This document shows positions 1-14,281 of a DNA stretch of 24,000 nucleotides, in pieces. The notes beneath the pieces are model-generated. The model worked only from the letters and a program-made list of their open reading frames with translations. It did not search any database and was not told where the DNA came from. Position 1 is the first letter of the stretch, and each line of letters begins with the position of its first letter. The translations under genes were made by a program, and so were the position numbers. The DNA is from Candidatus Caldarchaeales archaeon (GTDB taxonomy: Archaea; Thermoproteota; Nitrososphaeria_A; Caldarchaeales; Calditenuaceae): NCBI GenBank assembly GCA_039630085.1, contig JBCNVM010000007.1:7742-31741 (forward strand). The letters run 5' to 3'.

Positions 1-1395
1 ATGAACATACTTTTCGGGCTTATACAGCCCGACGAAGGGGAGATCTACTTGGACGGCAGGAGGGTCGTCTTCAGGTCGCCCCTCGATGCGATAAACATGG
101 GCGTCGGGATGGTCCATCAGAACAGGAAGTTAATACCCGCGCACACCGTGCTCGACAACGTAATAATCGGACACCCGAAGACAGGGTGGCTTCTGGACAG
201 GAAGAGGAGCAGGGCCGAGGTGGAGGAGCTGTGCAGGAGGTTCGGGTTCGACCTTGACCTCGACGCGCGGGTCTGGCAGCTCTCGGCAGGGGAGAAGCAG
301 CTGGTCGAGATCGTCCGTGCCCTTTACAGGGGGGCTAAGATACTGATCCTCGATGAGCCGACGTCCGTGCTCACGCCGCCCGAGATCGAAAGCTTCTTGG
401 AGTCCCTCAAGGCCCTCTCGAGAGAGAAGATCACTCTGGTCCCGTTCGTGACCCACAAGCTTCCGGAAGTCTTTTCGACGTGTGACAGGGTTACCATCCT
501 CAGGAGGGGGAAGGTGGTCAAGACGCTTAACGTCAAGGAGGCCACTGCCAAGCAACTCGCAGAGTACATGGTCGGCAAGGAGGTTTCTCTCTCGATAGAG
601 AGGCAGGACTCCAGGTTAGGACAGGAGATCCTGAGGGTCGAGAACCTCTCCGCGATGAACGACAAGGGTCTCGTGGCCTTCAGCGGCGTCACCTTCTCGC
701 TGCGCGAGGGCGAGATCTTCGGCATAGCGGGCGTCAGCGGGAACGGACAGCATGAGCTGGCAGAGACCATCTTCGGCCTGAGGAGGCCGTTGTCCGGCAG
801 GATCCTCTACAACGACCGCGACATCACCAAGTCCTCCGTCCTCCAGCGGTTGCGGATGGGGATCGCATACATCCCGCCGGAGAGGTTGGGAGTTGCGGCG
901 GTCGGCGAACTGAGCTTAGTCGACAACGTGTTGCTCATGTATTACTACGACGGTGCCGCGTCGAGGAGCGGGTTCATCAATTACAAGCTCATTCGGGAGC
1001 TAACGGAACAGATCATCTCCGAATACGGCATTGTCGCTCCCGGGCCCACTGCCAAGGCATCGCACTTGTCCGGCGGAAACCTGCAGAGGCTCATCCTCGG
1101 CCGGGTCCTCTCTAGGAACCCGAAGGTCGTCATAGCTAACCTCCCGACGCAGGGGCTCGACGTGGCGGCCGCCCAGTACGTAAGGAGGAAGCTGCTGGAG
1201 TGCAAGCAGCGCGGTGCCGGCGTGATCCTGATCTCGGAGGACCTCGACGAGATACTGCAACTTAGCGATAGGGTCGCCCCCGTCTACGAGGGGCGTTTCG
1301 TCGACGTTCTTGATAACACGGCCCTCCGGAAGGAGGAAGTAGGGGCGATGATAGCGGGCGCCCACGCGGGGAGGGAGAAGGGCCTTGCTCAGTGA
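1..1395 (+). CDS. ABC transporter ATP-binding protein, tandem-cassette (BMP/CUT2-type sugar or nucleoside importer), 5' end cut by window edge
   Basis: The frame is open from base 1. The first-cassette Walker A is missing, so the gene continues upstream. Cassette 1 has signature LSAGEKQLVEI and Walker B ILILDEPTS. Cassette 2 has GVSGNGQHEL, signature LSGGNLQRL and ILISEDLDE. Stop TGA at 1393-1395. Confidence 0.9.
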   Translation: MNILFGLIQPDEGEIYLDGRRVVFRSPLDAINMGVGMVHQNRKLIPAHTVLDNVIIGHPKTGWLLDRKRSRAEVEELCRRFGFDLDLDARVWQLSAGEKQLVEIVRALYRGAKILILDEPTSVLTPPEIESFLESLKALSREKITLVPFVTHKLPEVFSTCDRVTILRRGKVVKTLNVKEATAKQLAEYMVGKEVSLSIERQDSRLGQEILRVENLSAMNDKGLVAFSGVTFSLREGEIFGIAGVSGNGQHELAETIFGLRRPLSGRILYNDRDITKSSVLQRLRMGIAYIPPERLGVAAVGELSLVDNVLLMYYYDGAASRSGFINYKLIRELTEQIISEYGIVAPGPTAKASHLSGGNLQRLILGRVLSRNPKVVIANLPTQGLDVAAAQYVRRKLLECKQRGAGVILISEDLDEILQLSDRVAPVYEGRFVDVLDNTALRKEEVGAMIAGAHAGREKGLAQ

Positions 1396-2467
1396 TACCC
1401 ATTTCAGGATCAAGCTGGAGAGGCTCCCCACCTTATCCGGTTGGAGGGCCGTCAGGATATCGCTTTACTCGATAGTGCTGTCGTTCCTTCTGTTCAGCAG
1501 CGTGTTGATATACGAGGGCGCCGATCCGCTCGTGGCTTACCAGAACATGTTCTCGTTCGCTTTCGATCCCAAGCTGGGACTCCCGCTGACCCTTCACAGG
1601 TCCATGCTGATCCTTCTGTGTACCCTCGCGTTCATCATCCCGTTGAGAGCAGGGCTCTGGAACGTGGGGATGGAGGGGCAGTTCTATCTCGGCACCATCG
1701 GGGCCTTCTTCTTAGCCTACACCTTCTCGACTTACTCCTCAGAGGTCCTGATGCTTCTCATGATAGTGGGGGCAATGGGCGGAGGGGCACTCTACGGCGC
1801 CATCGCTGGGTTCTTACGCGGTCGGTACAACGTCAACGAGGTGGTAGTGACGCTCATGCTCAACAACATAGCGTTCTGGATCGTATACATGCTCGTGGTC
1901 GGAGGGCCGTGGGCTGGGATCGCCGAGTCGTCGAGCAGGCCGCTACCTACGTCCGCTCACGCTCCGTTCATCTCCATAACGCCCATCACGAGCTACATCA
2001 TCGTCGCACTCGCAGTGCTCGTCTTCCTCTTCCTCACCAAGACGACCTTGGGATTCAAGCTCCGGGTCCTAGGATATAGCCCCGTAGCCGCGAGGATTGC
2101 CGGCATAGAGGAGTTCAGGGTCTCTGTCCTCGTGATGAGCATAGGAGGTGCCTTAGCTGGTCTGGCCGGCTATCACATGTGGGCGGGCGATCCGGCATAC
2201 TACATGATTCCGCGTCCGGAGGCTTACAAAGCGATAGGCGATCTGACCTACTGGGGCATCATAATCGGGCTGATCTGCCTGCTCAATCCCATTCCCGCCA
2301 TACCGGCTTCCCTCTTCATGGGCTCCGTCATAGTCGGCTCGACCGTGTTGGTGAGGAGGCTGCGACTGCCTTTCGGGCTAGATTTCCTGCTGCTGGGGAT
2401 CATCTCGATTACCTTTGCCGCCTTCCAACTGTTCTACAACTACAGGATGCGGGTGATCAGGAAATGA
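1385..2467 (+). CDS. ABC transporter permease (BMP-type, YufP/NupP-like)
   Basis: 360-aa ORF with many hydrophobic segments and a NVGMEGQFYLG motif typical of this permease family. The only start upstream of the first TM segment is TTG 1385, which overlaps the ATPase stop by 11 nt (operon coupling). Confidence 0.8.
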   Translation: MLSDTHFRIKLERLPTLSGWRAVRISLYSIVLSFLLFSSVLIYEGADPLVAYQNMFSFAFDPKLGLPLTLHRSMLILLCTLAFIIPLRAGLWNVGMEGQFYLGTIGAFFLAYTFSTYSSEVLMLLMIVGAMGGGALYGAIAGFLRGRYNVNEVVVTLMLNNIAFWIVYMLVVGGPWAGIAESSSRPLPTSAHAPFISITPITSYIIVALAVLVFLFLTKTTLGFKLRVLGYSPVAARIAGIEEFRVSVLVMSIGGALAGLAGYHMWAGDPAYYMIPRPEAYKAIGDLTYWGIIIGLICLLNPIPAIPASLFMGSVIVGSTVLVRRLRLPFGLDFLLLGIISITFAAFQLFYNYRMRVIRK

Positions 2468-3357
2468 TCGAGTTACCTCCGGCGATCTGGCCCTTCACCA
2501 CTAGGGTCTTAGAGGTCTCAACGATCCTGCTTCTCGCTGCCGCAGGCGAGCTCCTCGTCCAGCGGTCGGGCGTGATCAACGTCGGTATCGAGGGCCTCAT
2601 GCTGTTCGGCGCGGCGACGTCGTTCATGACCGCTCAGCTCTTCGGTCCGCTTCCGGGCTTCATCGCAGGCTCGCTCGTGGGGACCCTTCTGGGACTCTTC
2701 CACGCCGTGATGTCGGTCTCTTTGAGGGTCAATCAGATAATCAGTGGAATGGGGGTTTGGTTGTTCGCGATGGGTTTCGTAACTTACTGGGCTGACAGGT
2801 ATACTGGTCCTCTCCGGACTTCGGTCCCGCGCATAGCCGGTCTAACTCCTGCCCTATTCATAGCGCTCGCCGTAGTTTTCGTGATCTGGTTCGTGCTGAA
2901 CAAAACGCATTATGGCTTGAAGATACGGTCCGTGGGGGAGAATCCCGCGGCCGCTGAGGTTTCCGGCGTCAATGTCAGTAGGATAAGGTACGTTTGCACG
3001 ATTATCGGCGGCACGCTGGGCAGCTTCGCGGGATCGGTCCTGCTCCTTTCGTACCTCGGGGCCTGGAGTCATCTCCCCACAAAAGGACTCGGATGGCTGT
3101 CGTTCGGATTGGTCATGTTCTCGCTCTGGAGACCAGGGATACTGCTCGCCGGGGCGCTCGCCTTCGGCTTCGTCTGGCAGTTCGCGATCTCGCCCGAGTC
3201 CATCGTCCCCGGCTTCCCAGTCCCTCTACCTGTTAGCAGAATGCTTCCGTTCTTGGTGACGGTAGTGATACTCACGATAATCTCGACCGAGCGGTTCAGG
3301 AGGAAATGGGCTCTGCTGAAACCTGAAGCGCTCGGACAACCATACATAAAAGAATGA
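2464..3357 (+). CDS. ABC transporter permease (BMP-type, YufQ/NupQ-like)
   Basis: ATG 2464 overlaps the upstream stop (ATGA at 2464-2467). The first 95 codons of the track ORF 2179..3357 lie inside the preceding gene and look non-protein-like. It has an INVGIEGLMLFGA motif and multiple TM segments. Confidence 0.8.
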   Translation: MIELPPAIWPFTTRVLEVSTILLLAAAGELLVQRSGVINVGIEGLMLFGAATSFMTAQLFGPLPGFIAGSLVGTLLGLFHAVMSVSLRVNQIISGMGVWLFAMGFVTYWADRYTGPLRTSVPRIAGLTPALFIALAVVFVIWFVLNKTHYGLKIRSVGENPAAAEVSGVNVSRIRYVCTIIGGTLGSFAGSVLLLSYLGAWSHLPTKGLGWLSFGLVMFSLWRPGILLAGALAFGFVWQFAISPESIVPGFPVPLPVSRMLPFLVTVVILTIISTERFRRKWALLKPEALGQPYIKE

Positions 3358-3383
3358 TGATCCTGAGCGTATGTGACTCTGTT

Positions 3384-4730
3384 TTACTTCAGCAGCACTA
3401 TGCCGTCCAGCATGAAGTTGAGCCTCGCGAGTAGAAATTCGTCTGTCGGCATCTCTTTTGCGGGCTTCACCACGGTACCCTTCGGAGGTACCTTCAGGTT
3501 GAGCTGCGGTATTTCGATCCCCTCGCCACTGCTGACCAGCTCGTTCTCATAGAACGGGTCCCAAGCGCCGCTCATCATCTGAGCCCTCCTGAGCTCTATG
3601 AGTTTCAGTACCCTCTCGGGGATGAGCGGTCTCGCCTTCGGGCTGATCGCCTCGAGCCCCACCTTCATATCGTTCTGTAGGTCGACTGCCGGCAACTTGG
3701 TCTGGCCTGGCATGATCGGATTGTTCTCCGGCAGCGAGATGTGTGTGTTCATGCCCAAGAAGTAGATCCTGTCGGGGTTAGTAGTGCCCGCGAGGTACTC
3801 CTTCAGGATCCGGTCGAAGAGGACCTCCCATCTGGTGTCGAAGGATACGGCAACCGTGTCGGTGGTAGACCACTTGTAGAGTCCCACCACGTCCGTGTCC
3901 TTACCTACGAACCAGATCTTTTTCTCCTCCGCGACCCTGAGGGGCTCGACCGAGTCCGTGTAATGGGTCAGGACATCGACCCCGGCGTCCACTAACGCAA
4001 GCGATACCTCCTTCTCCTTGGGCGGATCGAACCACTCGCCGACGTATTTGATGTACAGCGTCGCGTTAGGGTTAGCGTCCTTGATCCCCAAGTAGAACGC
4101 GGCCATCCTCCTGAAGTTCTGCACGGCTGCCGGCCCCACTGCTATGCCGATCTTGTTCTTGCGCGTTATGGCGCCTGCGATCAGTCCCTCGAGGTACATC
4201 GCCTGATACTGTCTGATGAAAACCCTCATGAAGTTCCTTCTCGAAGAGACGTCGCTCCCGACGATGCCGAGGAAGTAGACGTTGGGGTTTTCGTCGGCTA
4301 TCCTGTGGAACGCGGGGACTGCCGCGGGCTCCCAGCTCCCGAAGATCACGTTGGCCTTGTTGACGGTGATCAGGTCCCTGGCCGACGATATCGGGTCCTT
4401 GCCCTTCAGGATAACACCCTCGTCGCGGACGTAGTCGAACCAGTTGTAGATCTTCTTCAGCCTCTCCGCGGCCATCACCTGGCGCCCGTCCCACGTCGAG
4501 CCCTCGACGTATCCTCCTAGGACCATCCCCAGAACGACCTTATTGGTCGCTTGAACCTCACGGGTCACGGTTGTCGTGAAGGCCCTCGTCTCGGTCACAG
4601 TCCGAGCTGGAGCTGCAGAGCCCCCAGCGAAGTATCCCCCAACAGCTCCCACGACTCCAGCGCCAACGGCGGCCGCCGCGACCTTTCCGGCAGTCGAGAT
4701 GGCCTCCCTTCTCGTTACCCTTCTAGTCAC
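3384..4730 (-). CDS. BMP-family (PnrA/Med-like) ABC substrate-binding protein with Tat-like signal/anchor
   Basis: 448-aa ORF with GTG start at 4730. The N-terminus has TRREAIS followed by the hydrophobic stretch AAAAVGAGVVGAVGG, then a Thr-rich linker (TVTETRAFTTTVTRE). The body has BMP-like blocks (AMYLEGLIAGAITRKNKIGIAVGP, FDPPKEKE, DAGVDVLTHY). It is convergent with the permease genes. Confidence 0.75.
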   Translation of the reverse strand: MTRRVTRREAISTAGKVAAAAVGAGVVGAVGGYFAGGSAAPARTVTETRAFTTTVTREVQATNKVVLGMVLGGYVEGSTWDGRQVMAAERLKKIYNWFDYVRDEGVILKGKDPISSARDLITVNKANVIFGSWEPAAVPAFHRIADENPNVYFLGIVGSDVSSRRNFMRVFIRQYQAMYLEGLIAGAITRKNKIGIAVGPAAVQNFRRMAAFYLGIKDANPNATLYIKYVGEWFDPPKEKEVSLALVDAGVDVLTHYTDSVEPLRVAEEKKIWFVGKDTDVVGLYKWSTTDTVAVSFDTRWEVLFDRILKEYLAGTTNPDRIYFLGMNTHISLPENNPIMPGQTKLPAVDLQNDMKVGLEAISPKARPLIPERVLKLIELRRAQMMSGAWDPFYENELVSSGEGIEIPQLNLKVPPKGTVVKPAKEMPTDEFLLARLNFMLDGIVLLK

Positions 4731-4749
4731 GCGAAACGCGCTCCGATGG

Positions 4750-4768
4750 TTTTATTTAACCTTTTTAC
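4750..4768 (-). promoter_or_regulatory. TATA-like box upstream of the binding-protein gene
   Basis: The minus strand reads GTAAAAAGGTTAAATAAAA about 20-38 nt upstream of GTG 4730. It is the only AT-rich element in the 43-nt gap after the CoxL-like stop. Confidence 0.4.
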
Positions 4769-4773
4769 ACTAA

Positions 4774-7098
4774 CTAATATCTTCGCCGACGAATAAGTTC
4801 ATAAAGCTTGTGGGGCTGCAGCGGGCTCTCGAACGGGATGACGGAGTTGTCGAGTGCGTCCTGCACTGTCGAGGCGATGACCGCGGCGACCGGTATAGCC
4901 CCTGCCTCTCCCACGCCCTTCACCCCCAGCGGGTTGAGAGGGGACGGTGTCTCGATGTGCCTTATGATTATCTCGTTCGGCGTCTCGACTGAGGTCGGAA
5001 CGAGGTAATCGGCGAAGCTCGCTGTCAGAGGCTGACCGTTCTCGTCGTGCACGATCTCCTCGAGCAGAGAGAACCCTATCCCGTTTGAAAGGCCTCCGAG
5101 GATCTGGCCCTCTACGATCATCGGATTTATGACTTTTCCGCAGTCGTGGACCACGACCATCCGCAGTATCGTGATTGCGCCCGTCTCCGGATCGACCTCT
5201 ACCTCGGCCGCTGCTCCTCCCGACGAGAACACTGAGTGTACCGGGCTGAAGTACTTCGTGGCCTCGAGCCCCGGCTCTCGCTTTATCAGGCCCCGCAGGG
5301 GACGGGCGCGCTCGGCGAGCTCTCCGAGGCCCATCGACTTGTCCGGTACCCCCTTGACGTAGACCCGTCCGTCCCTGAACTCCAAGTCGTCGGGACTGGT
5401 CTCGAGGATCTGCGCCGCGAGCTCCGCGGCTTTCCTCCTGACCTCCATTGCTGCCAGGTAGACCGCGTTTCCGGCTATGGTGGCAGACCTGCTGGCGAAT
5501 GTGCCCACCCCCCATGACATCTGCGCAGTGTCCCCGACGGCCACGTCCACATCGTGCACGCTCACTCCCAACGCCTCGGAGACGATCTGTGCCAAGGTGG
5601 TGGACTGGCCCTGACCCTGGGTCCCGACGCCCGTTGCGACGCTCACCTTGCCGGACGGCGTCACGGTCACTCTGGCCATCTCGTAGGGGCCCACTCCGGC
5701 TCCCTCAACGTAGAGCGCGAGCCCAAGCCCGACGAACCTGCCCTCTCTCCTGTACCTCTCCCTGCGTTCGGGCCAGCCTCTGTAGTCTATCGCGTCCAAG
5801 AGCGTCTCGAGGAGGAGCGGGTAATTCCCGCTGTCGTACTTCACCGGCCCTCCGTCCTGATAGATTATCCCGGTGTCGTACGGGAACTCGTTGGGCTGGA
5901 TGATATTCCGCCTCCTTATCTCGGCCCTGTCAAGTCCCAACCTGTGCGCCGCCACGTCCATCATCCTTTCCATCACGTAAACGGCTTCCGGTCTTCCGGC
6001 GCCTCTGACCGGGCTGACGATGGTCTTGTTGGTGTAGACCGACGCGAACTCCACGTCGAACGCGGGTATTTTGTATGGTCCGGGCATCGTCCCTGTTGTG
6101 ATGATCGGCACCATTATTCCATAGGGTGTGTAAGCTCCAGTGTCGACTAGGAAACTGTCGCTCAGTCCTAGTATCTTCCCGTCCCTGCTGAAGGCTGCCC
6201 TCACGTAGTGGACCTGTATCCTCTGCTGGTTGGCCGCCACCATATACTCCCGCCTCTCCTCTATCCACTTGACCGGACGGCCCAGCCTGATCGCCGCGAA
6301 GGGGACTAAGATCTCCTCGGGGTAGAACAGCATGATCTTCGGGCCGAACCCACCCCCCACGTCTGGAGCTATCACCCTCACCCGATTCTCGGGAATGCCG
6401 AACAGCTTCGCGAGTCCGTTCCGGATCGGAATTGGGGCTTGGGTGGAGTCCCAGACCGTCAGATAACCCGACTTCTCGTCGTAGTGCGCCACCACACCCC
6501 TGGTCTCTATGGATGCCCCCGCGCCCCTGTTGAAGACGATTCGCTGCTCTATCACGAGGTCTGCGCGCCGGAAGGCCTCGGAGACGTCTCCGACCCTCAC
6601 CCTATGTCGGGCTGCTATGTTGTTGGGCACGTCGTCGTGTACGAGCGGAGACCCGGGCTGAATCGCCCTCTCAACGTCAACGACTGGTTCCAGCGGATCG
6701 TATTCCACAGATATCAGCTCCAACGCGTCCCTTGCGACGTACTTGTCCTCGGCTACGACCATCGCGATCGGTTCCCCCACGTAACGCACCTTGTCCTTCG
6801 CTAGCGCGTAGTGGGTCTTCATGTAGGGTATCGGATATTGAGGCAGCGGGGTGATCGAGGGTGGAAGCGGTCCGTTCAGGGGCCCTAAGTCCTCGGCCGT
6901 GTAGACCGCCGCTACCCCGTCCAGCCTCTCGGCCCCCGACTTGTCAATCGAGACTATCCTCGCGTGGGCGTGGGGACTTCTCAGGATTGCAGCGTAGAGC
7001 ATTCGTGGGAGGACGATGTCGTCAACGAACAGGCCCTTGCCCGATAGAAGCCTCCCGTCCTCCAGTCTAGGTACGGAGGCTCCTATAATTTTCTTCAT
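4774..7098 (-). CDS. Molybdopterin-binding large subunit of the xanthine dehydrogenase / aerobic CO dehydrogenase (CoxL) family; substrate unknown
   Basis: The conserved N-terminus begins at ATG 7098 (MKKIIGASVPRLEDGRLLSGKG). Family motifs are present: VGGGFGPK, SPVRGAGRPE, EVEVDPETG, VHDCGKVINP, KGVGEAG. The track ORF extends to 7170, but the extra 24 codons run through the AT-rich promoter region. Confidence 0.85.
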   Translation of the reverse strand: MKKIIGASVPRLEDGRLLSGKGLFVDDIVLPRMLYAAILRSPHAHARIVSIDKSGAERLDGVAAVYTAEDLGPLNGPLPPSITPLPQYPIPYMKTHYALAKDKVRYVGEPIAMVVAEDKYVARDALELISVEYDPLEPVVDVERAIQPGSPLVHDDVPNNIAARHRVRVGDVSEAFRRADLVIEQRIVFNRGAGASIETRGVVAHYDEKSGYLTVWDSTQAPIPIRNGLAKLFGIPENRVRVIAPDVGGGFGPKIMLFYPEEILVPFAAIRLGRPVKWIEERREYMVAANQQRIQVHYVRAAFSRDGKILGLSDSFLVDTGAYTPYGIMVPIITTGTMPGPYKIPAFDVEFASVYTNKTIVSPVRGAGRPEAVYVMERMMDVAAHRLGLDRAEIRRRNIIQPNEFPYDTGIIYQDGGPVKYDSGNYPLLLETLLDAIDYRGWPERRERYRREGRFVGLGLALYVEGAGVGPYEMARVTVTPSGKVSVATGVGTQGQGQSTTLAQIVSEALGVSVHDVDVAVGDTAQMSWGVGTFASRSATIAGNAVYLAAMEVRRKAAELAAQILETSPDDLEFRDGRVYVKGVPDKSMGLGELAERARPLRGLIKREPGLEATKYFSPVHSVFSSGGAAAEVEVDPETGAITILRMVVVHDCGKVINPMIVEGQILGGLSNGIGFSLLEEIVHDENGQPLTASFADYLVPTSVETPNEIIIRHIETPSPLNPLGVKGVGEAGAIPVAAVIASTVQDALDNSVIPFESPLQPHKLYELIRRRRY

Positions 7099-7111
7099 AT
7101 GACGCCGGTCA

Positions 7112-7150
7112 TTGATTCTATTATTTATGTTTATTCTTTGATATAATAGT
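7112..7150. promoter_or_regulatory. AT-rich divergent promoter region (TATA-like boxes on both strands)
   Basis: The sequence ttgattctattatttatgtttattctttgatataatag is embedded in GC-rich DNA. The minus-strand ACATAAATAA lies about 25-35 nt upstream of ATG 7098. Confidence 0.45.
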
Positions 7151-7305
7151 TTTGCAGTCGTATGCCACATCGGAGGCGGTTCGCGTCTTCCCGTTCCACT
7201 GCTGCAGCAGGGCTCGCCTCGAACGCCGTCATGATGCGATTCTTTGCGCGGTCTCCGGGCCGAACTCGCGAACCTTTTTCCCGGAGAGGGAACGCGTAGC
7301 GCGCG

Positions 7306-8157
7306 ATGAAGTCCGGCGCGCTGAGCTACGACGAGGGCTACAGGCTGCTGTCGGAAGGCGGCGGAACCGTCGAGGCTCTGGGGAGCAGGGCGGCATACGT
7401 GAGGACGCCCTCCGAGGATGTTGTGATACTGACCGATCGACCTCTGACGCGCTATTCGGTCTCCCTCTTCGACTCTTGGGAGGACTTGAGGAAGGTCATC
7501 GAAGTGGGCGACCGCGTCTCGATCGAGCGGTCGACGCTGACGATCGGAGCTGAGCTCCGCGTGCCGTTGAGGGTACGGGGTCTCTGTTCGAGGGTGACGG
7601 GCCGCTCTGATCTCAGCCCAGAGTCCCTGAGCTCGGCGATCAGTTATTTCCGGGCGCTCGCTTCAGTCGACGAGCGCGACCCGGTTGTGGAGCGAGGCGT
7701 AGAGATCCTCAGGAGCAGCGCGAGTGCCGACGCTCTCTGCGAGTCCCTTAAGGAGGTCGTCGGAAAGGGCAGGGGGTACACGCCGGTCGGCGACGACTTC
7801 GTTTCGGGGGTCATGGTGGCCTTCAAGTTACTTGGCCGCGAATCTGACTTCCGTCCGCTCGTAGAGTTCGCAAAGTCGCGTTCGAGGTGGCCCAGCTGGA
7901 AAATGATGGAGCACTCCCTTCACGGGTGCACATTCCTTTCGGTCATGTCGCTCTGTGCCTCGATCGCAAAGGGGTCTGACCCAACTCCACATGTGATGAG
8001 TTCACTTAGGATGGGCAGCTCAACGGGGCTTGCCGTTTTGACAGGGCTTTTTGAGACGTTGTTTTTGTATTACAGGAGTTTGTCTAATATGTTTTTGAGG
8101 TCGTCCTCGATTTCCGCAGGTGGGCTCCATTCGACGTCGACGACTTCCACACCCTGA
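7306..8157 (+). CDS. DUF2877-like protein (YlbF/AllH family)
   Basis: 283-aa ORF. The GKGRGYTPVGDDFVSGV motif matches the G-x-G-x-G-x-TP-x-GDD-x-x-x-G signature I associate with DUF2877. It sits next to FdrA and DUF1116 genes, as in bacterial fdrA-ylbE-ylbF loci. The last ~29 codons are antisense to the 51-aa ORF and look low-complexity. Confidence 0.6.
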   Translation: MKSGALSYDEGYRLLSEGGGTVEALGSRAAYVRTPSEDVVILTDRPLTRYSVSLFDSWEDLRKVIEVGDRVSIERSTLTIGAELRVPLRVRGLCSRVTGRSDLSPESLSSAISYFRALASVDERDPVVERGVEILRSSASADALCESLKEVVGKGRGYTPVGDDFVSGVMVAFKLLGRESDFRPLVEFAKSRSRWPSWKMMEHSLHGCTFLSVMSLCASIAKGSDPTPHVMSSLRMGSSTGLAVLTGLFETLFLYYRSLSNMFLRSSSISAGGLHSTSTTSTP

Positions 8158-8225
8158 CTTCGGAGGCTCTCGGAGAATATTGACACGCCGATGCAGAGCA
8201 CCTTTCCGATCCTCTCCGGCGTCAT
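8070..8225 (-). CDS. Small protein (51 aa) equivalent to the C-terminal tail of bacterial FdrA; not in the supplied ORF track
   Basis: Hand translation gives MTPERIGKVLCIGVSIFSESLRSQGVEVVDVEWSPPAEIEDDLKNILDKLL. Its ATG (8223-8225) overlaps the FdrA stop TGA (8222-8224) as ATGA. It is collinear with the E. coli FdrA C-terminus as I recall it (VINIGLRSFALELQS...PVVHYQWSPVAGG...LARLLERL). Confidence 0.6.
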   Translation of the reverse strand: MTPERIGKVLCIGVSIFSESLRSQGVEVVDVEWSPPAEIEDDLKNILDKLL

Positions 8226-9769
8226 GTCACCTCACTCAGGACGAACCTCTCGATTAAGTGATGGAGCACCGATGCGTCCTCCTCCGCGCACGCCGCTGCG
8301 AACGCCGCGGTCACCGCGTTGGAGCCGGTGGTTATGAGCGGGTACTTCGAGAGCTCCCGTGTTTGATCCCATTGGGGGTCTTCGCCGGTTCCGACGACCC
8401 TCGCCGAGACCCTCTTGCGCTCTCCGGTCGCTAGCGCAGGCCCGACCTCCTCCAAGGTCCTCGAGACTGCGTCCACGGGAGCTCCGTACCCGATGATCAG
8501 GTCGAACGCGATCGATCCTGTCTCTGGTGATGCCAGCTCTTGAGTTATCCGCCTGTTCCTCAGCGACGGGTCTATTATCGGATGAACTCTTCCGGCGGTG
8601 AACTCCTCCGACCCGTAGTCAACCACGGTCGCCCCCCTAGAGCGCAGCGGATCGTCTAGCTTCTTCGTCCAAGGCAGCTCCAAATTCGAATAGACCTCGA
8701 TCCCCGCCTCGCTCCACAGGAATGCCGTCTCGGTCGCAAGCGTTCCGCCGCAGTAGAATCCGCGGGGATGACCTCCTCCGTCGACCTTCTCCTTGAGCGA
8801 GGTCACCTCTCTCTCCAGTGCCGAGAGGGCCTTGCTGTAAGCCTGAGGTGAGACGAGAGAGCAGGCCTTCAGCGCGGTCGCGTGGAGTGTGGGGAGTTGC
8901 GGGTGCTCGCTGATCTTCTCCTTGTGTCCGAGAAGGCAGAGCAGCAGGGGCTTGCCGATCTTCGCGTCTTCGAGGACCCGTTTCACGAGTTCCGCATCTG
9001 ACTGCTTGGCCAGCAGCACGATGACCTTCGTGCTCCGGTCTCCGTCGAGGAGCCTCAGCGACTCGCGCGTCATCAGCCCTCCCACGGCTCTGGTCATGTC
9101 GCGTCCTCCCACTCCGATCGCGTGAGAGATGCCCACTCCCATGTCGTGTAGTATGACCGACAACTCTTGGATGCCTGAGCCGGATGAGGCCACTATCCCC
9201 ACCGGGCCCCTGATGACCCTGTTCGCGAACCCGAAGCCCACGCCCCCAATTATCGAAGTCCCGGCCTCCGGCCCCATCACTAGGAGGTTCCTCGCGGCGG
9301 CCTCGCGCTTCATCGCTACCTCCACCTCTATCGGGACGTGATCGCTGAAGACGAAGAGGTTGACTCCCCTCTCGAGGAGCTTGAATGCGACGTCCTTCAC
9401 GTGCTGTCCGGGTATCGATATCGATGCCATTCTTATGTCCGGGTTCTCGTGCAGAGCGTCGTCTATGCTCGCGTATCTGGCGGTCCGGGGCTTCATCTGG
9501 AACAGGACCTCTCTCGCCTTCCTCAGGACGCCTTCCGTCAGCCCGACTCCCTTAAGTGCGATCACGATATCGTTTGGTCCTGCACGGTCGCCCTCCGGCG
9601 TGAGGATCCCCTGCGACCTCAGGAGCTCCTTATTGGCTTCGGTGGCCATGACGACCGCGACCTCGATCACCCCGGGCAGCCTCTTGATCGCCTCGGAGGC
9701 TTCCATCAGCTGCACCGAATCCCGATAAAGGCCTTGCACTACCAAGTTGATTACGTCAGTTGAACCCAC
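8222..9769 (-). CDS. fdrA: FdrA-type acyl-CoA-synthetase-like protein (succinyl-CoA-synthetase-alpha-like fold; AllF family)
   Basis: Collinear blocks match E. coli FdrA: YRDSVQLM, LVMGPEAGTSII, GIVASSGSGIQEL, SHAIGVGGRDM, GRVHPIIDPSLRN, VVGTGEDPQ. The ORF is open to TTG 9793, which lies inside the TATA-like box. GTG 9769, about 25-30 nt downstream of that box, is the more plausible start. Confidence 0.85.
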   Translation of the reverse strand: MGSTDVINLVVQGLYRDSVQLMEASEAIKRLPGVIEVAVVMATEANKELLRSQGILTPEGDRAGPNDIVIALKGVGLTEGVLRKAREVLFQMKPRTARYASIDDALHENPDIRMASISIPGQHVKDVAFKLLERGVNLFVFSDHVPIEVEVAMKREAAARNLLVMGPEAGTSIIGGVGFGFANRVIRGPVGIVASSGSGIQELSVILHDMGVGISHAIGVGGRDMTRAVGGLMTRESLRLLDGDRSTKVIVLLAKQSDAELVKRVLEDAKIGKPLLLCLLGHKEKISEHPQLPTLHATALKACSLVSPQAYSKALSALEREVTSLKEKVDGGGHPRGFYCGGTLATETAFLWSEAGIEVYSNLELPWTKKLDDPLRSRGATVVDYGSEEFTAGRVHPIIDPSLRNRRITQELASPETGSIAFDLIIGYGAPVDAVSRTLEEVGPALATGERKRVSARVVGTGEDPQWDQTRELSKYPLITTGSNAVTAAFAAACAEEDASVLHHLIERFVLSEVT

Positions 9770-9790
9770 AATCGATGCGATCTGAAAGTG

Positions 9791-9806
9791 CAATATTTAT
9801 ATTAGT
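9791..9806. promoter_or_regulatory. Shared quasi-palindromic TATA element between divergent fdrA and cyclase genes
   Basis: The sequence caATATTTATATTag contains AATAT..ATATT inverted halves. It is the only AT-rich element between GTG 9769 (-) and ATG 9820/9832 (+), and is about 25-35 nt from each. Confidence 0.5.
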
Positions 9807-9831
9807 GTTCCGAGGCGTGATGATCGCGACC

Positions 9832-10629
9832 ATGTCTGCCGTTGTAGATCTGTCAAAGGTAAAAATATATGACTTATCCCAGCCGACCAGCGCGAGAGCT
9901 CCGCCCTTCATGTACTACCCTCCGTTCAAATGGACGTGGATCAAGAGGCTCGGAGAGCACGGCGTCAACGCGCAGTACATCGAGGGACCGCTTCACACGG
10001 GTACGCACTTCGACGGCCAGCTGCACTTCATGACGGGAGGGAAGGACATGGCCAGCATCGACGTCAGCTACTTCATCGGGGAGGGGATCATAGTTGACAT
10101 CAGCAAGCGCGTCGGCGACTACGACATCTACACAAGCGACATGATCGAGGAGGCGGCGAGGGAGGCAGGCCTCCGGATAAAGCCCGACGACATACTGCTC
10201 ATCTACACGGGTTACAGCCGTTACGCGTGGTGCGGTCCCGAGCCCGACGAAGTGCGGTACATGTGTAAGCACCCGGGCCCCGACATCAGGTTCGCGAGGT
10301 GGTGCATCGAGAAGAGGATCAGGTGGCTCGGCGTCGACGCGATGTCGCAGGACCACCCTCTGAACACCGTCGTCAGGAGGGCGAGGCCCGACCTGGTAGC
10401 GGAGGCCGAAAGGAAGTGGGGAAAGAAGATCGACGAGGTGCTGCCCTGGCCCGAGAACTATCAGGTGATGCACACGATGCTTTTCCCGAGGATGATCCTT
10501 CATGTCGAGAACCTAGGAGGGGACATCGACAAGGTCGTCAACAAGAGGTGCCTGATCATAGCGCTGCCGTTCAAGTTCGAGGGAGGAGAGAGCGCGTACT
10601 GCCGAGTGGTGGCCCTCACCTCGGAATGA
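9832..10629 (+). CDS. Putative-cyclase family metal-dependent hydrolase (kynurenine formamidase / isatin hydrolase-like)
   Basis: The HTGTHFDGQLHF motif matches the family signature HxGTHxDxPxH, and there is a downstream GVDAMSQDHP block. The track ORF starts at TTG 9760 inside fdrA. ATG 9832 (or ATG 9820) fits the TATA spacing. The stop lies 6 nt before the DUF1116 ATG. Confidence 0.75.
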   Translation: MSAVVDLSKVKIYDLSQPTSARAPPFMYYPPFKWTWIKRLGEHGVNAQYIEGPLHTGTHFDGQLHFMTGGKDMASIDVSYFIGEGIIVDISKRVGDYDIYTSDMIEEAAREAGLRIKPDDILLIYTGYSRYAWCGPEPDEVRYMCKHPGPDIRFARWCIEKRIRWLGVDAMSQDHPLNTVVRRARPDLVAEAERKWGKKIDEVLPWPENYQVMHTMLFPRMILHVENLGGDIDKVVNKRCLIIALPFKFEGGESAYCRVVALTSE

Positions 10630-10635
10630 GCAGGC

Positions 10636-11898
10636 ATGGAGACGCTTAAGGAGGAGATCGAGAGGGCGAACGATAAGTGCCTCGATCTGATGATGGAGGC
10701 GAGGCCCCTCCTCGTGGACATCGTAGAGGCGCGGAAGGTCATACCCTTCCTCGCGAAGGACAAATGCCTCACGCATGCGGGCCCGCCGATTAGCTGGGAT
10801 AGGGCCAGCGGCCCCCTGAGGGGCGCGATAATCGGAGCCGCGATCTACGAGGGCTGGGCCGAGAACGAGAGAGAGGCGATCAGGCTGGCGGAGAGGGGTG
10901 AGATAGTCCTCGAGCCCAATCACCATCACTCGGCGGTCAGTCCCATGGCCGGCGTCATCTCGCCGTCGATGAAGGTCTTCGTGGTCAGGGACGGTGACCT
11001 GAGGACTTACAGCAACCTCAACGAGGGGCTCGGTAAGGTCATGAGGTACGGCGCCTACTCCCCCGACGTTTTGGACCGCCTCCGCTTCTTGAACGAGGTC
11101 GTCGGCCCCGTTCTCTCCGACGCGGTGAAGGAGTACGTCCGTGATAAGGGGGGAATGGATCTGAAGAGCATAATGGCCCAGGCGGTCCATATGGGCGACG
11201 AGTGTCACAACCGGAACATTGCCTCGACTTCCCTGTTCTACAGAGAGATATCGTCCTATGTTATCGACTCGACTGACAAAGAGACAGCAAAAATTGTGCT
11301 TAAGACGATCGACTCTAACATCTTATTCTTCCTTAACATGGCAATGGCGGCCTGCAAGCTGATGGCCGATAGGGCCCACGGCGTCAAGTACAGCACGATC
11401 GTGACCACGATCGCGAGGAACGGCACGGACGTCGGCATCAGGGTGAGCGGGCTCGGAGACCAGTGGTTCACAGCTCCGGCGACCATACCTAGGGGTCTGT
11501 ACTTCTCAGGGTTCAGCGAGTCCGACGCAAACCCCGACATAGGCGACAGCACGATAACCGAGACAGTCGGGCTCGGTGCGGCCGCTTTGGCGGCGAGCCC
11601 GGCGATCGTGAGGTTCATCGGCGGGGACGCGAAGACGGCGATCGAGATCACCAACAGGATGGCGAAGATCTGTCACGGCAGGCACCGCTACTTCACGATC
11701 CCCTATCTAGAGTTCGAGGGTACCCCAGTTGGGATAGACATCAGGAGGGTTCTGCGACTCGGTCTTCCGCCTGTGGCCGACACGGGCATAGCGCATAGGG
11801 AGGCCGGAGTGGGGCAGATAGGCGCAGGGATCGTCGAGCTGCCGATCGAGCCCTTCAAGCAGGCCCTGAGGAAATACGCCGAGGCCTACGGGATCTGA
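10636..11898 (+). CDS. DUF1116 protein (YlbE/AllG family)
   Basis: 420 aa. It is collinear with E. coli YlbE as recalled: LTHAGPPISW, EGWAENEREA, NHHHSAVSPMAG, NLNEGLGKVMRYGAY, MGDECHNRNIAS, FFLNMAMAACK, GIRVSGLGDQWFTAP, ANPDIGDSTITET, DTGIAHREAGVGQIGAG. Confidence 0.85.
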   Translation: METLKEEIERANDKCLDLMMEARPLLVDIVEARKVIPFLAKDKCLTHAGPPISWDRASGPLRGAIIGAAIYEGWAENEREAIRLAERGEIVLEPNHHHSAVSPMAGVISPSMKVFVVRDGDLRTYSNLNEGLGKVMRYGAYSPDVLDRLRFLNEVVGPVLSDAVKEYVRDKGGMDLKSIMAQAVHMGDECHNRNIASTSLFYREISSYVIDSTDKETAKIVLKTIDSNILFFLNMAMAACKLMADRAHGVKYSTIVTTIARNGTDVGIRVSGLGDQWFTAPATIPRGLYFSGFSESDANPDIGDSTITETVGLGAAALAASPAIVRFIGGDAKTAIEITNRMAKICHGRHRYFTIPYLEFEGTPVGIDIRRVLRLGLPPVADTGIAHREAGVGQIGAGIVELPIEPFKQALRKYAEAYGI

Positions 11899-11986: not shown

Positions 11987-12010
11987 GTGGACCGGGCGGG
12001 ATTCGAGCCC
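11987..12010 (-). repeat. Inverted partial copy of the tRNA-Ala 3' end (T-loop to discriminator/first C)
   Basis: 11987-12006 (gtggaccgggcgggattcga) is the exact reverse complement of tRNA positions 14189-14208 (20/20). The match is 23/24 when extended to 12010. The GC content drops immediately after 12010. Confidence 0.85.
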
Positions 12011-12071
12011 AGATTTACTCACCGGCTTTCCTTATTACTCCGAAAAAAGGTAGGTAAGTTCACAGAAAAAG

Positions 12072-12080
12072 TTATAAATT
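12072..12080 (+). promoter_or_regulatory. TATA box for the HAD gene
   Basis: TTATAAATT lies 24-32 nt upstream of ATG 12104, consistent with a leaderless transcript. Confidence 0.4.
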
Positions 12081-12103
12081 TCTACGTGCAAGGGTTTATA
12101 ATA

Positions 12104-12973
12104 ATGAGCAGAGTATTCCATAATACAATCGCCCTCATAATGGATTGTGACGATACGCTGTGTGAGGACACCACTGACGCGTGTCTAAAGCAGATCGGAA
12201 TAGAAGATCCTCTGGAGGACTTCTGGAAAAAGAGAGTAAAACCCAAGGTCAAAGATGGCTGGGACCCGCCACTAGCGTATATGACCGAATTCATAAATGT
12301 GGCCAAGGAAAAAGGTACAAAACTCACAAAGGATTTTTTGAGAAAGTAGGACGAAATCTGAAATTTTATCCCGGAGTTCCAAACTTTTTCGATGAGTTAA
12401 GGAATGAGGTCAAAGCTATTAGCAACGAGTACGAAATCGACATAAGGATTGAGTTTTATGTTATTAGCTCAGGTTTTGAAGAGGTCATAACGGCGAGTCC
12501 TCTAAACTCCTATGTAACCGAAATTATGGATGTACATTTTACATTGATGAAAACGGTCGTGTAATATGCCCGAAATCGATAGTAACGTTTACGGAAAAAA
12601 AAACAAATTTGTGTTCGCGATAAACAAGGGCATTAACAAGATGATTTTACGAAGTGACCCTGGTAGAGTTAATGACACGATAAGTGAGGAGAATAGAAGG
12701 ATTCCCTTCAAGAACATGATCTACATAGGAGACGGACCAACAGACATACCCTGCTTCTCGCTTATCACAAGGAACGGGGGGCGAGGATTAGGAATTATAC
12801 AGCCCGAAAAGCCAGAAAGGGGGGCTCCATTATGGAAAGGACGAAGAATAACTGTGGGACCGTACCGCCCTAATTATGAGCAAGGATCAGACCTCCGACT
12901 TATGATAAAGGCTTTGATAAGAGACATCTCAGCGAGTATTTATGAGGAGTCGAAAATGTCATATCGCCCGTGA
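12104..12973 (+). pseudogene. HAD-superfamily hydrolase gene disrupted by three single-nucleotide deletions
   Basis: HAD motif I (IMDCDDTL) is in frame 2. Motif II (YVISSG) is in frame 1. The segment YGCTFYIDENGRVICPKSIVTFTEKK is in frame 3. The K..KG region and motif IV (YIGDGPTDIP) are back in frame 2. The frame switches are at about 12346 (GG), about 12525 (TT) and the A9 run at 12595-12603. The track shows three fragments: 11987..12349, 12181..12564 and 12566..12973. Confidence 0.75.
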
Positions 12974-13025
12974 CATTCATTAACAAATAGATGTCGTCGC
13001 GATCTCGATCGAATAAACCATCATT

Positions 13026-13037
13026 ATTTTATAAAAT
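13026..13037. repeat. Perfect 12-nt palindrome ATTTTATAAAAT, copy 1 (TATA-like)
   Basis: Read directly from the sequence. It is self-complementary and preceded by ATCATT, as is copy 2. Confidence 0.7.
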
Positions 13038-13126
13038 TCTCGTAGAGCGGAGCACGTTGACCTATCCTGTTAAATACGTAGACGAAACATCGCATACTCG
13101 ACGCATTCGGAAAAATCATTTACACT

Positions 13127-13138
13127 ATTTTATAAAAT
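13127..13138. repeat. Perfect 12-nt palindrome ATTTTATAAAAT, copy 2 (TATA-like)
   Basis: An identical 12-mer lies 101 nt downstream of copy 1. The context is ATCATTtacacTATTTTATAAAAT. Confidence 0.7.
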
Positions 13139-14134
13139 GTTGAATACAGTATAGAGAGCTAATTTTATTTTAGCATTAGTGACTGATTTTAAGTGTTGTT
13201 TTGTTGATCGCTCTTCCTTTCAGTATACTGGTCGCAGCATTTGGTTAAACCTGTCCGGAGGAAAAGGCAAGTCGTTTCGGTGGCTTCTGGGTTTGGATTA
13301 GCCATGGGGTTGATAGGTGGAATTTTCGGACGCGGGTTGGGCTGCTTACATAGTTTACAATAAGGTCATCTGGGATTATTTCGTTGTTGGCTGTTCATAG
13401 TTTGTGACATTATAATAATTTAGAGAACTACAAGAAAGATCTCACGTCGTCTCAAGCTTGTGGAACGGGAGGTTCGAGGGTAACTGTTCGAGTTTTGACG
13501 GCTCGGTGGGAAATGGTCTGCCGAAGCTGTGGAAACATCCCGACACTAAGCTTTAGAGCGTATAACATCTGTGGTTCAAGGCTCTACATGGAGAGATAGG
13601 TGTAAAATACCCTGTCTGCAAAGGTTCCCTATCCTGCACCACAGAAACCGTTTGAAAGGAAGGACAGAACAGGCTCTTAGAAGAATAGCAGATTGTGTGA
13701 GGAGATTTGGGACACCCGGATAACCCTAAATCGTGTTTCAGTCTCGCTCAAAAAGCTCATCAGAAAGTTCTTGAAATTGATTTTTCTGATTTACGGTAAC
13801 AACCAGCTTTTTCGTTGAGAAAACCTAAACGCTATAGTTGTGAAGATGTCTGTGAATACTGAGAGATGAGGAGGTTGGAGAGGAAAACGCAGTCTCAGAG
13901 GTGCCGAAAAGTGTCTCTGAAGAGCGTTGATCGGGAAGTTGCGTTCGCCTTGCTTCCTGACAGCGACAGTATTATCACTTCGGCGTTGATACTCCTGAGA
14001 AATCTGGCTCGAAATAGTCAACCCGTCACAAAAGGATGTGAGACGAAAAAAGCAGGAGTCATAGGAACGAATTAAGGCGGAGAAAGCCCGATTACATTAA
14101 AACTAAAATTCTCCGAGTGAGAGATGCGATAAGG

Positions 14135-14210: not shown

Positions 14211-14240
14211 ATCCTGTGATGCAATAAGGGTAACCATGAA

Positions 14241-14281
14241 GAGGGAAAAATAGAGGAGGAACGCTTCGTCGGATTCTCCTC
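14241..14281 (-). terminator. Stem-loop plus T-tract downstream of the LAGLIDADG gene
   Basis: The minus strand reads GAGGAGA-aatccgacgaagcgt-TCCTCCTC followed by TATTTTTCCC, about 30 nt after the stop at 14312. T-tracts are the usual archaeal termination signal. Confidence 0.4.

Follow-up and report, generated by a model that had tools for sequence, protein, structure and literature searches.

The oxidative route of pyrimidine breakdown was described biochemically in the 1950s, and we know of no gene assigned to its uracil dehydrogenase. In Rhodococcus and Mycobacterium the route runs from uracil through barbiturate and 3-oxo-3-ureidopropanoate to urea and malonate, catalysed by uracil dehydrogenase, barbiturase and ureidomalonase (Soong et al. 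2001/2002, as summarised in PMC3758960). In Escherichia coli, oxamic transcarbamylase was found in 2024 to consist of three subunits, FdrA, YlbE and YlbF, which were renamed AllF, AllG and AllH; the complex interconverts oxalurate plus phosphate with carbamoyl phosphate plus oxamate, and its operon, allFGHK, includes the carbamate kinase AllK (PMC11326118). Here we describe a gene cluster in a 24-kb stretch of DNA from a Candidatus Caldarchaeales archaeon (contig JBCNVM010000007.1, positions 7,742 to 31,741; hereafter the window), in which AllF-, AllG- and AllH-family genes lie with a Bmp-type ATP-binding cassette (ABC) importer, a molybdenum (Mo) hydroxylase of the CoxL/XDH family and a cyclase-family hydrolase. 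Judged from gene families and their neighbourhoods, these modules very probably form one catabolic unit that breaks down a nucleobase or cyclic ureide and yields carbamoyl phosphate. A pyrimidine-specific route, from uracil through barbiturate and ureidomalonate to carbamoyl phosphate and malonamate, is a candidate for which the case seems to us evenly balanced.

The cluster has all three subunit families in common with E. coli AllFGH, and presumably also a reversible carbamoyl transfer between an acylurea and phosphate. In contrast to the allFGHK operon, the window genes are split over both strands, a cyclase gene is inserted among them and carbamate kinase is missing; they are tied to a Mo hydroxylase and a ring-opening hydrolase, with no allantoin genes nearby. 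The proposed intermediates are those of the Rhodococcus/Mycobacterium pathway, and a member of the barbiturase/AtzD family stands next to AllHFG genes in three related loci. Unlike that pathway, the ring opener here would belong to the cyclase family (PF04199) rather than the AtzD 'Toblerone' fold, and phosphorolysis to carbamoyl phosphate and malonamate would replace hydrolysis to urea and malonate. Because the final step would be phosphorolytic, the ureido group would be kept as ATP or activated nitrogen. The same logic (Mo hydroxylase, ring-opening amidohydrolases, ureido phosphorolysis and ATP from carbamate kinase) is found in the anaerobic 2,8-dioxopurine pathway with YgeW and YqeA (bioRxiv 10.1101/2025.04.24.650524). 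There, however, the transcarbamylase YgeW has the aspartate/ornithine transcarbamylase (ATCase/OTCase) fold and acts on an alkyl-ureido compound, and the amidohydrolases are SsnA and HyuA; the paper is silent on FdrA/AllF, oxamate and any cyclase-family enzyme (bioRxiv 10.1101/2025.04.24.650524). The closest literature is a 2025 metagenomic note of allFGHK beside bmpA-nupABC and triuret/biuret genes in some metagenome-assembled genomes (MAGs) of nitrifiers and Nitrososphaerales (PMC12625717). A full-text literature search found no description of a cluster combining a Mo hydroxylase, a cyclase and AllFGH, or of an oxidative pyrimidine route that yields carbamoyl phosphate. The component families are known; the combination and the reactions it implies are new.

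Gene content and synteny of the cluster

The gene content of the window was defined from its open reading frames (ORFs) with Pfam and NCBIfam scans. An independent gene call from a near-identical public contig gave the identical gene set, with shorter starts chosen. The cluster comprises the following features.

1..1395, plus strand: ABC transporter ATPase with tandem ABC_tran domains (Pfam ABC_tran, E 1e-36)
1385..2467, plus strand: ABC permease 1, BPD_transp_2 (Pfam, E 1.5e-32)
2464..3357, plus strand: ABC permease 2, BPD_transp_2 (Pfam, E 1.4e-31; start 2464 from the independent gene call)
3384..4730, minus strand: Bmp-family substrate-binding protein with an N-terminal membrane anchor (Pfam PF02608, E 4e-25)
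4774..7098, minus strand: large subunit of a CoxL/XDH-family Mo hydroxylase, 'class 1' (three Pfam domains, E 3e-31 to 1e-86)
7099..7305, no strand: divergent CoxL/AllH intergenic region, A+T-rich at about 7105-7160, with candidate archaeal TATA elements
7306..8157, plus strand: AllH (DUF2877; Pfam PF11392, E 8e-17)
8222..9793, likely start 9706, minus strand: AllF (FdrA; relative of succinyl-CoA synthetase alpha; Pfam Ligase_CoA and CoA_binding, PF00549/PF02629)
9817..10629, plus strand: cyclase-family (PF04199) metal-dependent amidohydrolase, between AllF and AllG and divergent from AllF (Pfam, E 1.5e-35)
10636..11898, plus strand: AllG (DUF1116; Pfam PF06545, E 3.5e-88; PDB 3CLQ, E 2e-102)

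The ATPase gene and permease gene 1 overlap by 11 nt and the two permease genes by 4 nt. The 5' end of the ATPase gene, about 45 residues, lies beyond the window edge (the NCBIfam alignment begins at model position 46), and the gene block thus extends past the left edge. The Bmp gene is convergent with the permease genes, and AllF (494 aa in the independent gene call) is convergent with AllH. Every gene named in an earlier sequence-only reading of this DNA is present where that reading placed it; the reading omitted the cyclase-family hydrolase (9817-10629, plus strand), which is a core member of the unit. The 43-nt gap that it reported between CoxL and Bmp is exact (4731-4773), and its divergent CoxL/AllH region of about 200 nt measures 207 nt with the CoxL start at 7098. 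The hydroxylase was rightly called an orphan: a tblastn search of the 24 kb at E = 10 detected no FAD (CoxM) or 2Fe-2S (CoxS) subunit, nor any remnant of a carbamate kinase, an amidase, a carboxyltransferase or a 246-aa protein that recurs in related clusters. The reading had referred to the Crenarchaeota. Because AllG (77% identity), CoxL (75%) and Bmp (76-79%) all have their nearest homologues in Ca. Caldarchaeum, sequence identity places the host in the Caldarchaeales (Nitrososphaerota/'Aigarchaeota') and not in the Crenarchaeota in the strict sense.

Conservation of the cluster was examined from three anchors. For AllG, one genome per GTDB species was scanned with an AllG alignment and the 80 most similar loci were retained; the AllG family as a whole comprises 581 clusters at 50% identity (E at most 1e-30). 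The loci were searched by tblastn with window, Vulcanisaeta and Caldarchaeum proteins, and counts were taken over the 43 species-level loci of at least 15 kb:

AllF: 43 of 43
cyclase: 34 of 43
any Cox subunit: 32 of 43
cyclase and Cox together: 28 of 43
AS-family amidase: 14 of 43
carbamate kinase: 6 of 43
Bmp orthologue (at least 40% identity): 5 of 43
any of Bmp, NCS1 or NCS2: 15 of 43

In Ca. C. subterraneum and a Nitrososphaerota MAG, the order and strands of CoxL, AllH, AllF, cyclase and AllG match those in the window, and both loci also hold the 246-aa protein, which has no Pfam match, and an mmdA-like carboxyltransferase. Vulcanisaeta thermophila carries CoxL-CoxM-CoxS, an amidase, a CoA transferase, a crotonase, cyclase-AllF-AllG-AllH, NCS2 and NCS1 permeases and a carbamate kinase. 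Gene-order maps of bacterial loci reveal long same-strand runs that hold all three modules, such as Bmp-ATPase-permease-permease-CoA transferase-AllF-CN hydrolase-AllG-double cyclase-NmrA-CoxM-CoxS-CoxL-CoxG on one strand in locus L040.

The association also appears when AllG is not the anchor. Among five contexts picked by CoxL similarity alone (57-64% identity), AllH is present in all five, the cyclase in four and AllF and/or AllG in three, and Bmp-ABC genes lie inside the cluster in two; a fourth locus stops at the cyclase and a CoA transferase. In the armatimonadotal locus L088, for example, the order is amidase-CoxL-CoxM-CoxS-AllH-Bmp-ATPase-permease-permease, followed by cyclase, AllG and AllF on the opposite strand. 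With Bmp as the anchor, all three closest contexts adjoin Cox subunits and the cyclase, and two of the three include AllFGH genes; the third contig stops after Bmp. In L092 (a Ca. Caldarchaeum MAG), the window arrangement recurs with a CodA-like amidohydrolase gene upstream of the ATPase gene; the locus further encodes the 246-aa protein, a carboxyltransferase and another CoxL. L093 (a Thaumarchaeota MAG) reads AllG-AllH-AllF-CoxS-CoxM-CoxL-CoxG-cyclase-Bmp-permease-permease-ATPase, and L094 (a Hadarchaeum contig) holds an adenine-deaminase-like gene, CoxLMS, a cyclase, an amidohydrolase and Bmp before the contig ends.

The modules are thus co-located, and often co-operonic, in Caldarchaeales, other Thermoproteati, Hadarchaeum, Chloroflexota, Acidobacteriota, Armatimonadota, Bacillota and Thermotogaceae, and their adjacency far exceeds chance. 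The sequence-only reading had proposed that a nitrogen heterocycle is taken up and broken down by a single functional unit and had suggested synteny as the test; in relatives the modules are co-located, not scattered, which supports the proposal. The inclusion of the Bmp importer holds in part: it recurs, but it is far from universal (5 of the 43 loci), and NCS1 or NCS2 permeases are found elsewhere instead. All-against-all protein clustering with Pfam identified further recurrent members: fused double cyclases, CN-hydrolase, CoxG, XdhC, NmrA-like and thiolase-like proteins, family III CoA transferase (11 loci), CodA-like amidohydrolases and PucR regulators. A Pfam census of the 133 leftover neighbouring ORFs yielded no additional dominant family. 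The 246-aa protein occurs in archaea and bacteria (L002 5828-6568; L092 6841-7581; nine species-level loci, e.g. L011, L014, L018 and L061); in Ca. Caldarchaeum its gene is flanked by CoxL and AllH, and the window lacks it.

Hydroxylase, hydrolase and transcarbamylase

The window CoxL consists of an a/b-hammerhead domain and two MoCo-binding domains (Pfam PF01315, PF02738 and PF20256). It has this domain architecture and the catalytic Glu in common with form I/II CO dehydrogenases (CODH) and other CoxL-clade hydroxylases (8UEM, 7DQX and 1T3Q; E 1e-148 to 1e-156); the Glu, in a GVGEAG motif, is conserved in the window protein and in all 48 cluster-linked CoxL sequences. In contrast to form I/II CODH, the window CoxL lacks the Cu-binding Cys of AYxCSFR: its active-site loop reads SPVRGAGRPE, the class 1 loop is P[VY]RGAGR and the CSFR Cys motif of form I CODH occurs in none of the 48 sequences. 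The gene context also differs, being of a nucleobase-type catabolic kind rather than coxMSL-coxDEF; CoxL orthologues with 50-75% identity adjoin AllFGH and the cyclase in many genomes. The window CoxL could nevertheless be an aerobic CODH among chance neighbours, as the NCBI names of close homologues imply. CODH_aero_grp5 is its best NCBIfam match (913 bits, cutoff 950), and the L088 orthologue passes that cutoff with 1060 bits. Set against the missing Cys and a synteny that runs both ways over two domains, this explanation is scarcely credible, and CODH was rejected as the identity of the window CoxL on the active-site loop. Class 1 hydroxylases (L088 10001-12358; P0144, P0145, P0158 and P0183) are labelled 'aerobic carbon-monoxide dehydrogenase large subunit' at NCBI via NF040766. 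Because the CODH Cys motif is missing and the context is an AllFGH/cyclase cluster, this naming is likely a systematic misannotation.

Two CoxL classes accompany the AllFGH and cyclase core, and Ca. Caldarchaeum loci have both. Class 1 is the window type; class 2 has an RGFG loop, finds its best matches in XdhA models and shares about 33% identity with class 1. Unlike other CoxL-clade hydroxylases, the Caldarchaeales class 1 gene has no adjacent M and S subunits: CoxM and CoxS are not beside it in Ca. Caldarchaeum loci, whereas the bacterial orthologues do have them as neighbours. The solved structures most closely related to the window CoxL are those of a mycobacterial CoxL, 6-hydroxypseudooxynicotine dehydrogenase and quinoline 2-oxidoreductase. 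Mo hydroxylases draw oxygen from water, and the window CoxL is a candidate nucleobase (uracil/thymine) dehydrogenase.

The cyclase-family protein retains the HxGTHxDxxxH metal site, its HTGTHFDGQLH aligning with HTGTHIDAPFH of the kynurenine formamidase KynB (4CO9). It scores 44 bits against the arylformamidase equivalog (cutoff 223) and is not a member of that equivalog. It also matches isatin hydrolases, which open a lactam ring. By its family and motif, this protein is a candidate ring-opening hydrolase and would be an analogue of barbiturase.

The window AllG is 46% identical to E. coli YlbE, and identities between E. coli and AllG of these clusters range from 46% to 56%. AllF is 32% identical to its E. 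coli counterpart; it matches the FdrA structure 3DMY (E 6e-54) and scores 320 bits against NCBIfam FdrA (PRK06091), under the cutoff of 433. AllH was assigned by its Pfam model. The sequence-only reading had linked these genes to the allantoin regulon, and this link is not borne out by the neighbourhood: in tblastn searches with E. coli proteins, homologues of AllA, AllC, AllD, AllE and Gcl were found in none of 90 related loci and not in the window, and AllB-like genes were found in two of the 90. Because those five are missing, supply of oxalurate by the E. coli route is unlikely, and an E. coli-type allantoin/oxalurate route was rejected. By analogy with the E. coli complex, the identity of AllFGH would recast the regulon link as a specific chemistry, the phosphorolysis of an acylurea, and the substrate here is probably ureidomalonate rather than oxalurate. 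Carbamate kinase is present in 11 related loci, and the protein of L089 (Thermaerobacter litoralis) lies above the arcC cutoff (383 against 358 bits).

AllH has no relative of known structure, and an AlphaFold2 model from the single sequence (mean pLDDT 41.6) was unusable. In bacteria the AllH gene is found directly after CoxL-CoxM-CoxS (L088 13789-14757, L095 14142-14984 and L096 13832-14719). In the window, AllH and CoxL have a divergent promoter region in common. AllH may act on behalf of the Mo enzyme, for instance in its maturation or in coupling, besides or instead of the carbamoyltransferase. In four proteins of about 1000 residues (P0362, P0364, P0365 and P0368), the last 400 residues correspond to AllG. 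These proteins may be fusions of AllF with AllG, and if so they would speak for a physical complex of the two subunits.

Proposed pathway and its substrate

In the pathway that we propose, the Bmp-type ABC system would import a base, or possibly a nucleoside. The CoxL-type hydroxylase would add a water-derived oxygen next to a ring nitrogen, most likely converting uracil to barbiturate (or thymine to 5-methylbarbiturate). On chemical grounds, hydroxylation of uracil at C6 would turn the N1-C6 bond into an amide, which the cyclase-family metal hydrolase could open to ureidomalonate (3-oxo-3-ureidopropanoate), an acylurea equal to oxalurate plus one CH2. Two enzymes would thus suffice to lead from a common base to an AllFGH-type substrate. 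In analogy to the action of E. coli AllFGH on oxalurate, AllF-AllG-AllH would then pass the carbamoyl group on to phosphate, giving carbamoyl phosphate and malonamate. In related genomes, carbamate kinase would make ATP from carbamoyl phosphate, an amidase or CN-hydrolase would turn malonamate into malonate, and a CoA transferase, carboxyltransferase or malonate decarboxylase would turn malonate into acetyl units. In the archaeon studied here, carbamoyl phosphate could instead feed arginine or pyrimidine synthesis.

Accessory genes in related loci point to malonate as the likely form of the downstream product. In locus L068, from a Bacillota MAG, CoxMSL-NCS2-PucR-AllH-AllF-AllG-cyclase runs on the same strand into a complete Malonomonas-type malonate decarboxylase set (13325-21236) composed of OAD_beta, the alpha subunit (E 2e-266), the acyl carrier protein delta, MdcE, MdcG and CitG. 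L009 holds a Carboxyl_trans/OAD_gamma/biotin carrier/OAD_beta decarboxylase of the Mmd biotin/Na+ type 6 kb from AllG, an mmdA-like carboxyltransferase stands beside AllG in Ca. Caldarchaeum loci, and Mmd-type or carboxyltransferase genes occur in L009, L002, L004, L008 and L092. From these gene families, the product looks like malonate. Amidase (17 loci) and CN-hydrolase (14 loci) never occur together, and one of them usually flanks AllF, as would be expected if an amide co-product has to be hydrolysed. Other genes concern the substrate. L090 encodes a cytidine deaminase above equivalog cutoffs with an adjoining IU nucleoside hydrolase, CodA-like amidohydrolases are present in six loci beyond L090 (among them L008, L046, L073, L092 and L094), and the UraA uracil permease model is the best match for four of five NCS2 carriers scanned from Cox-linked clusters. 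The sequence-only reading had linked the modules to purine or nucleoside chemistry; on the cytidine deaminase, CodA-like, UraA-like NCS2 and malonate genes, a pyrimidine is likelier.

The same genes bear on the possibility that the substrate is no nucleobase at all, but a pyridine, pyrazine or quinoline, and that the AllFGH-like complex catalyses another reaction, e.g. acyl-CoA or acyl-phosphate chemistry suited to its fold, which resembles succinyl-CoA synthetase alpha. The nearest solved relatives of CoxL noted above include 6-hydroxypseudooxynicotine dehydrogenase and quinoline 2-oxidoreductase, AllF has CoA-ligase-type domains, and AllH may accompany CoxLMS without AllF or AllG. Yet the 46-56% AllG identity between E. 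coli and the clusters suggests conserved chemistry, carbamate kinase recurs, the transporters are of nucleobase type and L090 has its deaminase and nucleoside hydrolase, so that we regard a non-nucleobase heterocycle as quite improbable.

The importer set (a PF02608 binding protein, two BPD_transp_2 permeases and a tandem-domain ATPase) is complete in the window and has the same arrangement in the orthologous loci L092 and L093, where the ATPase gene comes after the two permease genes. By sequence, the best solved relatives of Bmp are AtzT and the Brucella protein 3S99. AtzT binds guanine at 110 nM as well as adenine and 2-hydroxyatrazine, and the 3S99 site has adenine modelled (PMC6834077). 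An AlphaFold2 model of Bmp built with 35 homologues (pLDDT 80) orders its structural neighbours in the same way. With TM-scores normalised by target length, the free-base binders AtzT (0.84) and 3S99 (0.81) come ahead of the nucleoside binders Lbp (guanosine; 0.76), BmpD (0.70) and PnrA (0.65-0.67). This proximity in sequence and predicted fold makes the nucleoside ligand suggested by the sequence-only reading doubtful. The window protein shares the Bmp fold with AtzT and 3S99, and mapping of the AtzT ligand contacts onto it shows that the stacking Trp (AtzT W194) is retained. The guanine-reading residues E165, N169, N218 and N220 of AtzT become Q, R, Y/Q and D in cluster Bmp proteins (Y in the window), and the resulting signature Q204/R208/W233/Y257/D259 is common to cluster-linked archaeal and bacterial orthologues (41-79% identity). 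The site residues differ from those of base binders and nucleoside binders alike, and compared with AtzT, 3S99, PnrA and BmpD the window protein is extended by about 100 residues at its C terminus and carries a membrane anchor at its N terminus. On the sequence and the model, the ligand is probably a flat N-heterocycle other than guanine. Two further Bmp subtypes have been recruited at other loci.

Several points weigh against the pyrimidine route. Gene content, two-way synteny and motif conservation are direct observations, but each substrate and reaction is deduced from family chemistry and gene neighbourhood, much of it in other genomes. The 80 AllG loci are the sequences nearest the query and not an unbiased sample of the family. 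The window has no malonate-handling gene, in addition to the missing CoxM, CoxS, carbamate kinase and amidase; in this archaeon the pathway is either incomplete or dispersed over the genome, and the FAD and Fe-S partners and the genes for later steps would be encoded outside the window. L096 has a CoxLMS-AllH operon with no AllF, AllG or cyclase within 10 kb, and the NmrA-like gene, the 246-aa protein and the thiolase-like gene have no part in the model. The AtzD-family enzyme of one related locus, discussed below, is scored by NCBIfam as a cyanuric acid hydrolase and not as a barbiturase.

The remaining points are hints of purines: the guanine- and adenine-binding relatives of Bmp, PucR-type regulators in four loci, the adenine-deaminase-like gene that adjoins CoxLMS, cyclase and Bmp in L094, and the XdhA-like class 2 CoxL found with this core in some genomes. 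In a purine unit the Mo hydroxylase would be a xanthine or hypoxanthine dehydrogenase, and further steps that involve the cyclase would lead to oxalurate for cleavage by AllFGH. To the hints can be added that the NCS2 carriers of L007 and L055 are pbuX-like and that AllFGH has been characterised with oxalurate and oxamate alone (PMC11326118). Against purines, uricase, allantoinase-route and ureidoglycolate dehydrogenase genes are not found in the 90 loci apart from the two AllB-like genes, and chemical reasoning yields no short path by which a hydroxylase and one amidohydrolase could turn xanthine or urate into an acylurea. The downstream genes suit malonate or (methyl)malonyl-CoA, the oxalyl-CoA decarboxylase domain is not among the top 25 families listed for the 133 leftover ORFs, and all four hydrogen-bonding positions of the AtzT guanine site are replaced in Bmp. 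A purine substrate is therefore unlikely.

A variant cluster bears on the ring-opening step. An AtzD/TrzD-family hydrolase (PF09663, E 1e-156) occurs with AllFGH-type genes and carbamate kinase in L055 of Tissierella pigra, L084 of C. ultunense and L020 of a Nitrososphaera MAG; no cyclase or Cox subunit was found in these three loci, and no AtzD-family gene in the window. Members of this family, barbiturase and cyanuric acid hydrolase, open barbiturate and cyanurate to acylureas (PMC3758960). From this pattern of gene content, the ring-opening step appears to be interchangeable with the barbiturase family. L055 and L084 share PucR, the AtzD-family hydrolase (2335-3438 and 2339-3439, respectively), a CodA-like amidohydrolase, transporters, AllH-AllF-AllG and carbamate kinase; L020 has the AtzD-family gene (5077-6186), AllG and carbamate kinase in common with them. 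The variant suggests that AllFGH may also harvest carbamoyl phosphate from carboxybiuret or biuret-type acylureas.

The cluster as a whole could accordingly serve another cyclic ureide, an imide or a triazine-like compound (cyanuric acid or ammelide type, hydantoin or parabanate, oxidised or damaged bases), with AllFGH acting on carboxybiuret, biuret or oxalurate. The L055 enzyme lies above the cyanuric acid amidohydrolase cutoff, and NCS1 carriers resemble allantoin/hydantoin permeases. CodA-like amidohydrolases are present, and AtzC is related to CodA. In nitrifier MAGs, allFGHK adjoins triuret/biuret genes and bmpA-nupABC (PMC12625717). Yet cyanurate, biuret and parabanate offer no C-H bond to a Mo hydroxylase, while Cox subunits are found in 32 of the 43 loci; the malonate decarboxylase and carboxyltransferase genes would be left unexplained, and natural fluxes of such compounds are small compared with those of nucleobases. 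We consider a substrate of this kind improbable.

A broader proposal is that the pyrimidine route represents a widespread, energy-conserving pathway of two domains, with a CoxL-clade uracil/thymine dehydrogenase, a non-homologous cyclase-family barbiturase, and AllFGH as a general acylurea:phosphate carbamoyltransferase (for ureidomalonate, carboxybiuret and oxalurate) that feeds carbamate kinase. This proposal is tentative and falls slightly on the doubtful side; if it holds, the NCBI name 'aerobic CO dehydrogenase group 5' mislabels the class 1 hydroxylases. It would assign genes to the oxidative pyrimidine route, including its first enzyme, and would mean that the route can end in carbamoyl phosphate instead of urea and so gain ATP by substrate-level phosphorylation. 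It would widen the substrate range of the AllFGH transcarbamylase family and give a function to many 'form II / group 5 CO dehydrogenase-like' genes, which are often taken as metagenomic evidence of CO oxidation. Nucleobase scavenging would be added to the capacities of hot-spring Caldarchaeales and of many uncultured Chloroflexota, Acidobacteriota and Armatimonadota. Should the substrate turn out to be another one, the conserved grouping of Mo hydroxylase, ring hydrolase and AllFGH would still be a clearly delimited target, open to direct tests.

Non-coding features and the right flank

The divergent spacer between AllF and the cyclase contains a TATA-like element, GCAATATTTATAT (window 9793-9805), that is kept in four Caldarchaeales loci (the window, L002, L004 and L092) and is probably a bidirectional TATA region shared by the two genes. 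No operator or shared regulator motif was found in the intergenic regions of these four loci, from which the TATA-like element alone emerged, and an Rfam scan of the window returned nothing besides tRNA. A faint hint of a 2-thiouracil desulfurase for a gene in L093 was gone in a direct Pfam scan and was dropped.

To the right of 11898, the cluster is followed by a stretch of 41-43% G+C, tRNA-Ala, a LAGLIDADG ORF and then housekeeping genes (triose-phosphate isomerase, a nucleotidyltransferase and rpoH-rpoB-rpoA'). The low-G+C segment (11987-14210; flanks about 60%) separates AllG from tRNA-Ala (14135-14210, plus strand) and is bracketed by a 24-nt inverted copy (96%) of the 3' end of that tRNA (11987-12010 and 14185-14208). 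It resembles what an integrated or rearranged element leaves behind. In Ca. Caldarchaeum relatives, AllG is followed by a carboxyltransferase and a second CoxL, or by ribosomal genes, instead of this segment. Three short ORFs in differing frames (11987-12973; 120, 127 and 135 aa) carry the HAD-phosphatase motifs DCDDTL ... GDGPTD and are probably a single HAD-like gene split by frameshifts. Adjoining tRNA-Ala, a free-standing 359-aa ORF (14312-15391, minus strand) has a LAGLIDADG_3 domain (E 1e-11) and no rRNA or intein host. The rpoH-rpoB-rpoA' operon occupies 18310-24000, and the rpoA' frame stays open from about 22040 up to the right edge of the window; an ORF in a different frame at 22332-23579 is probably spurious.

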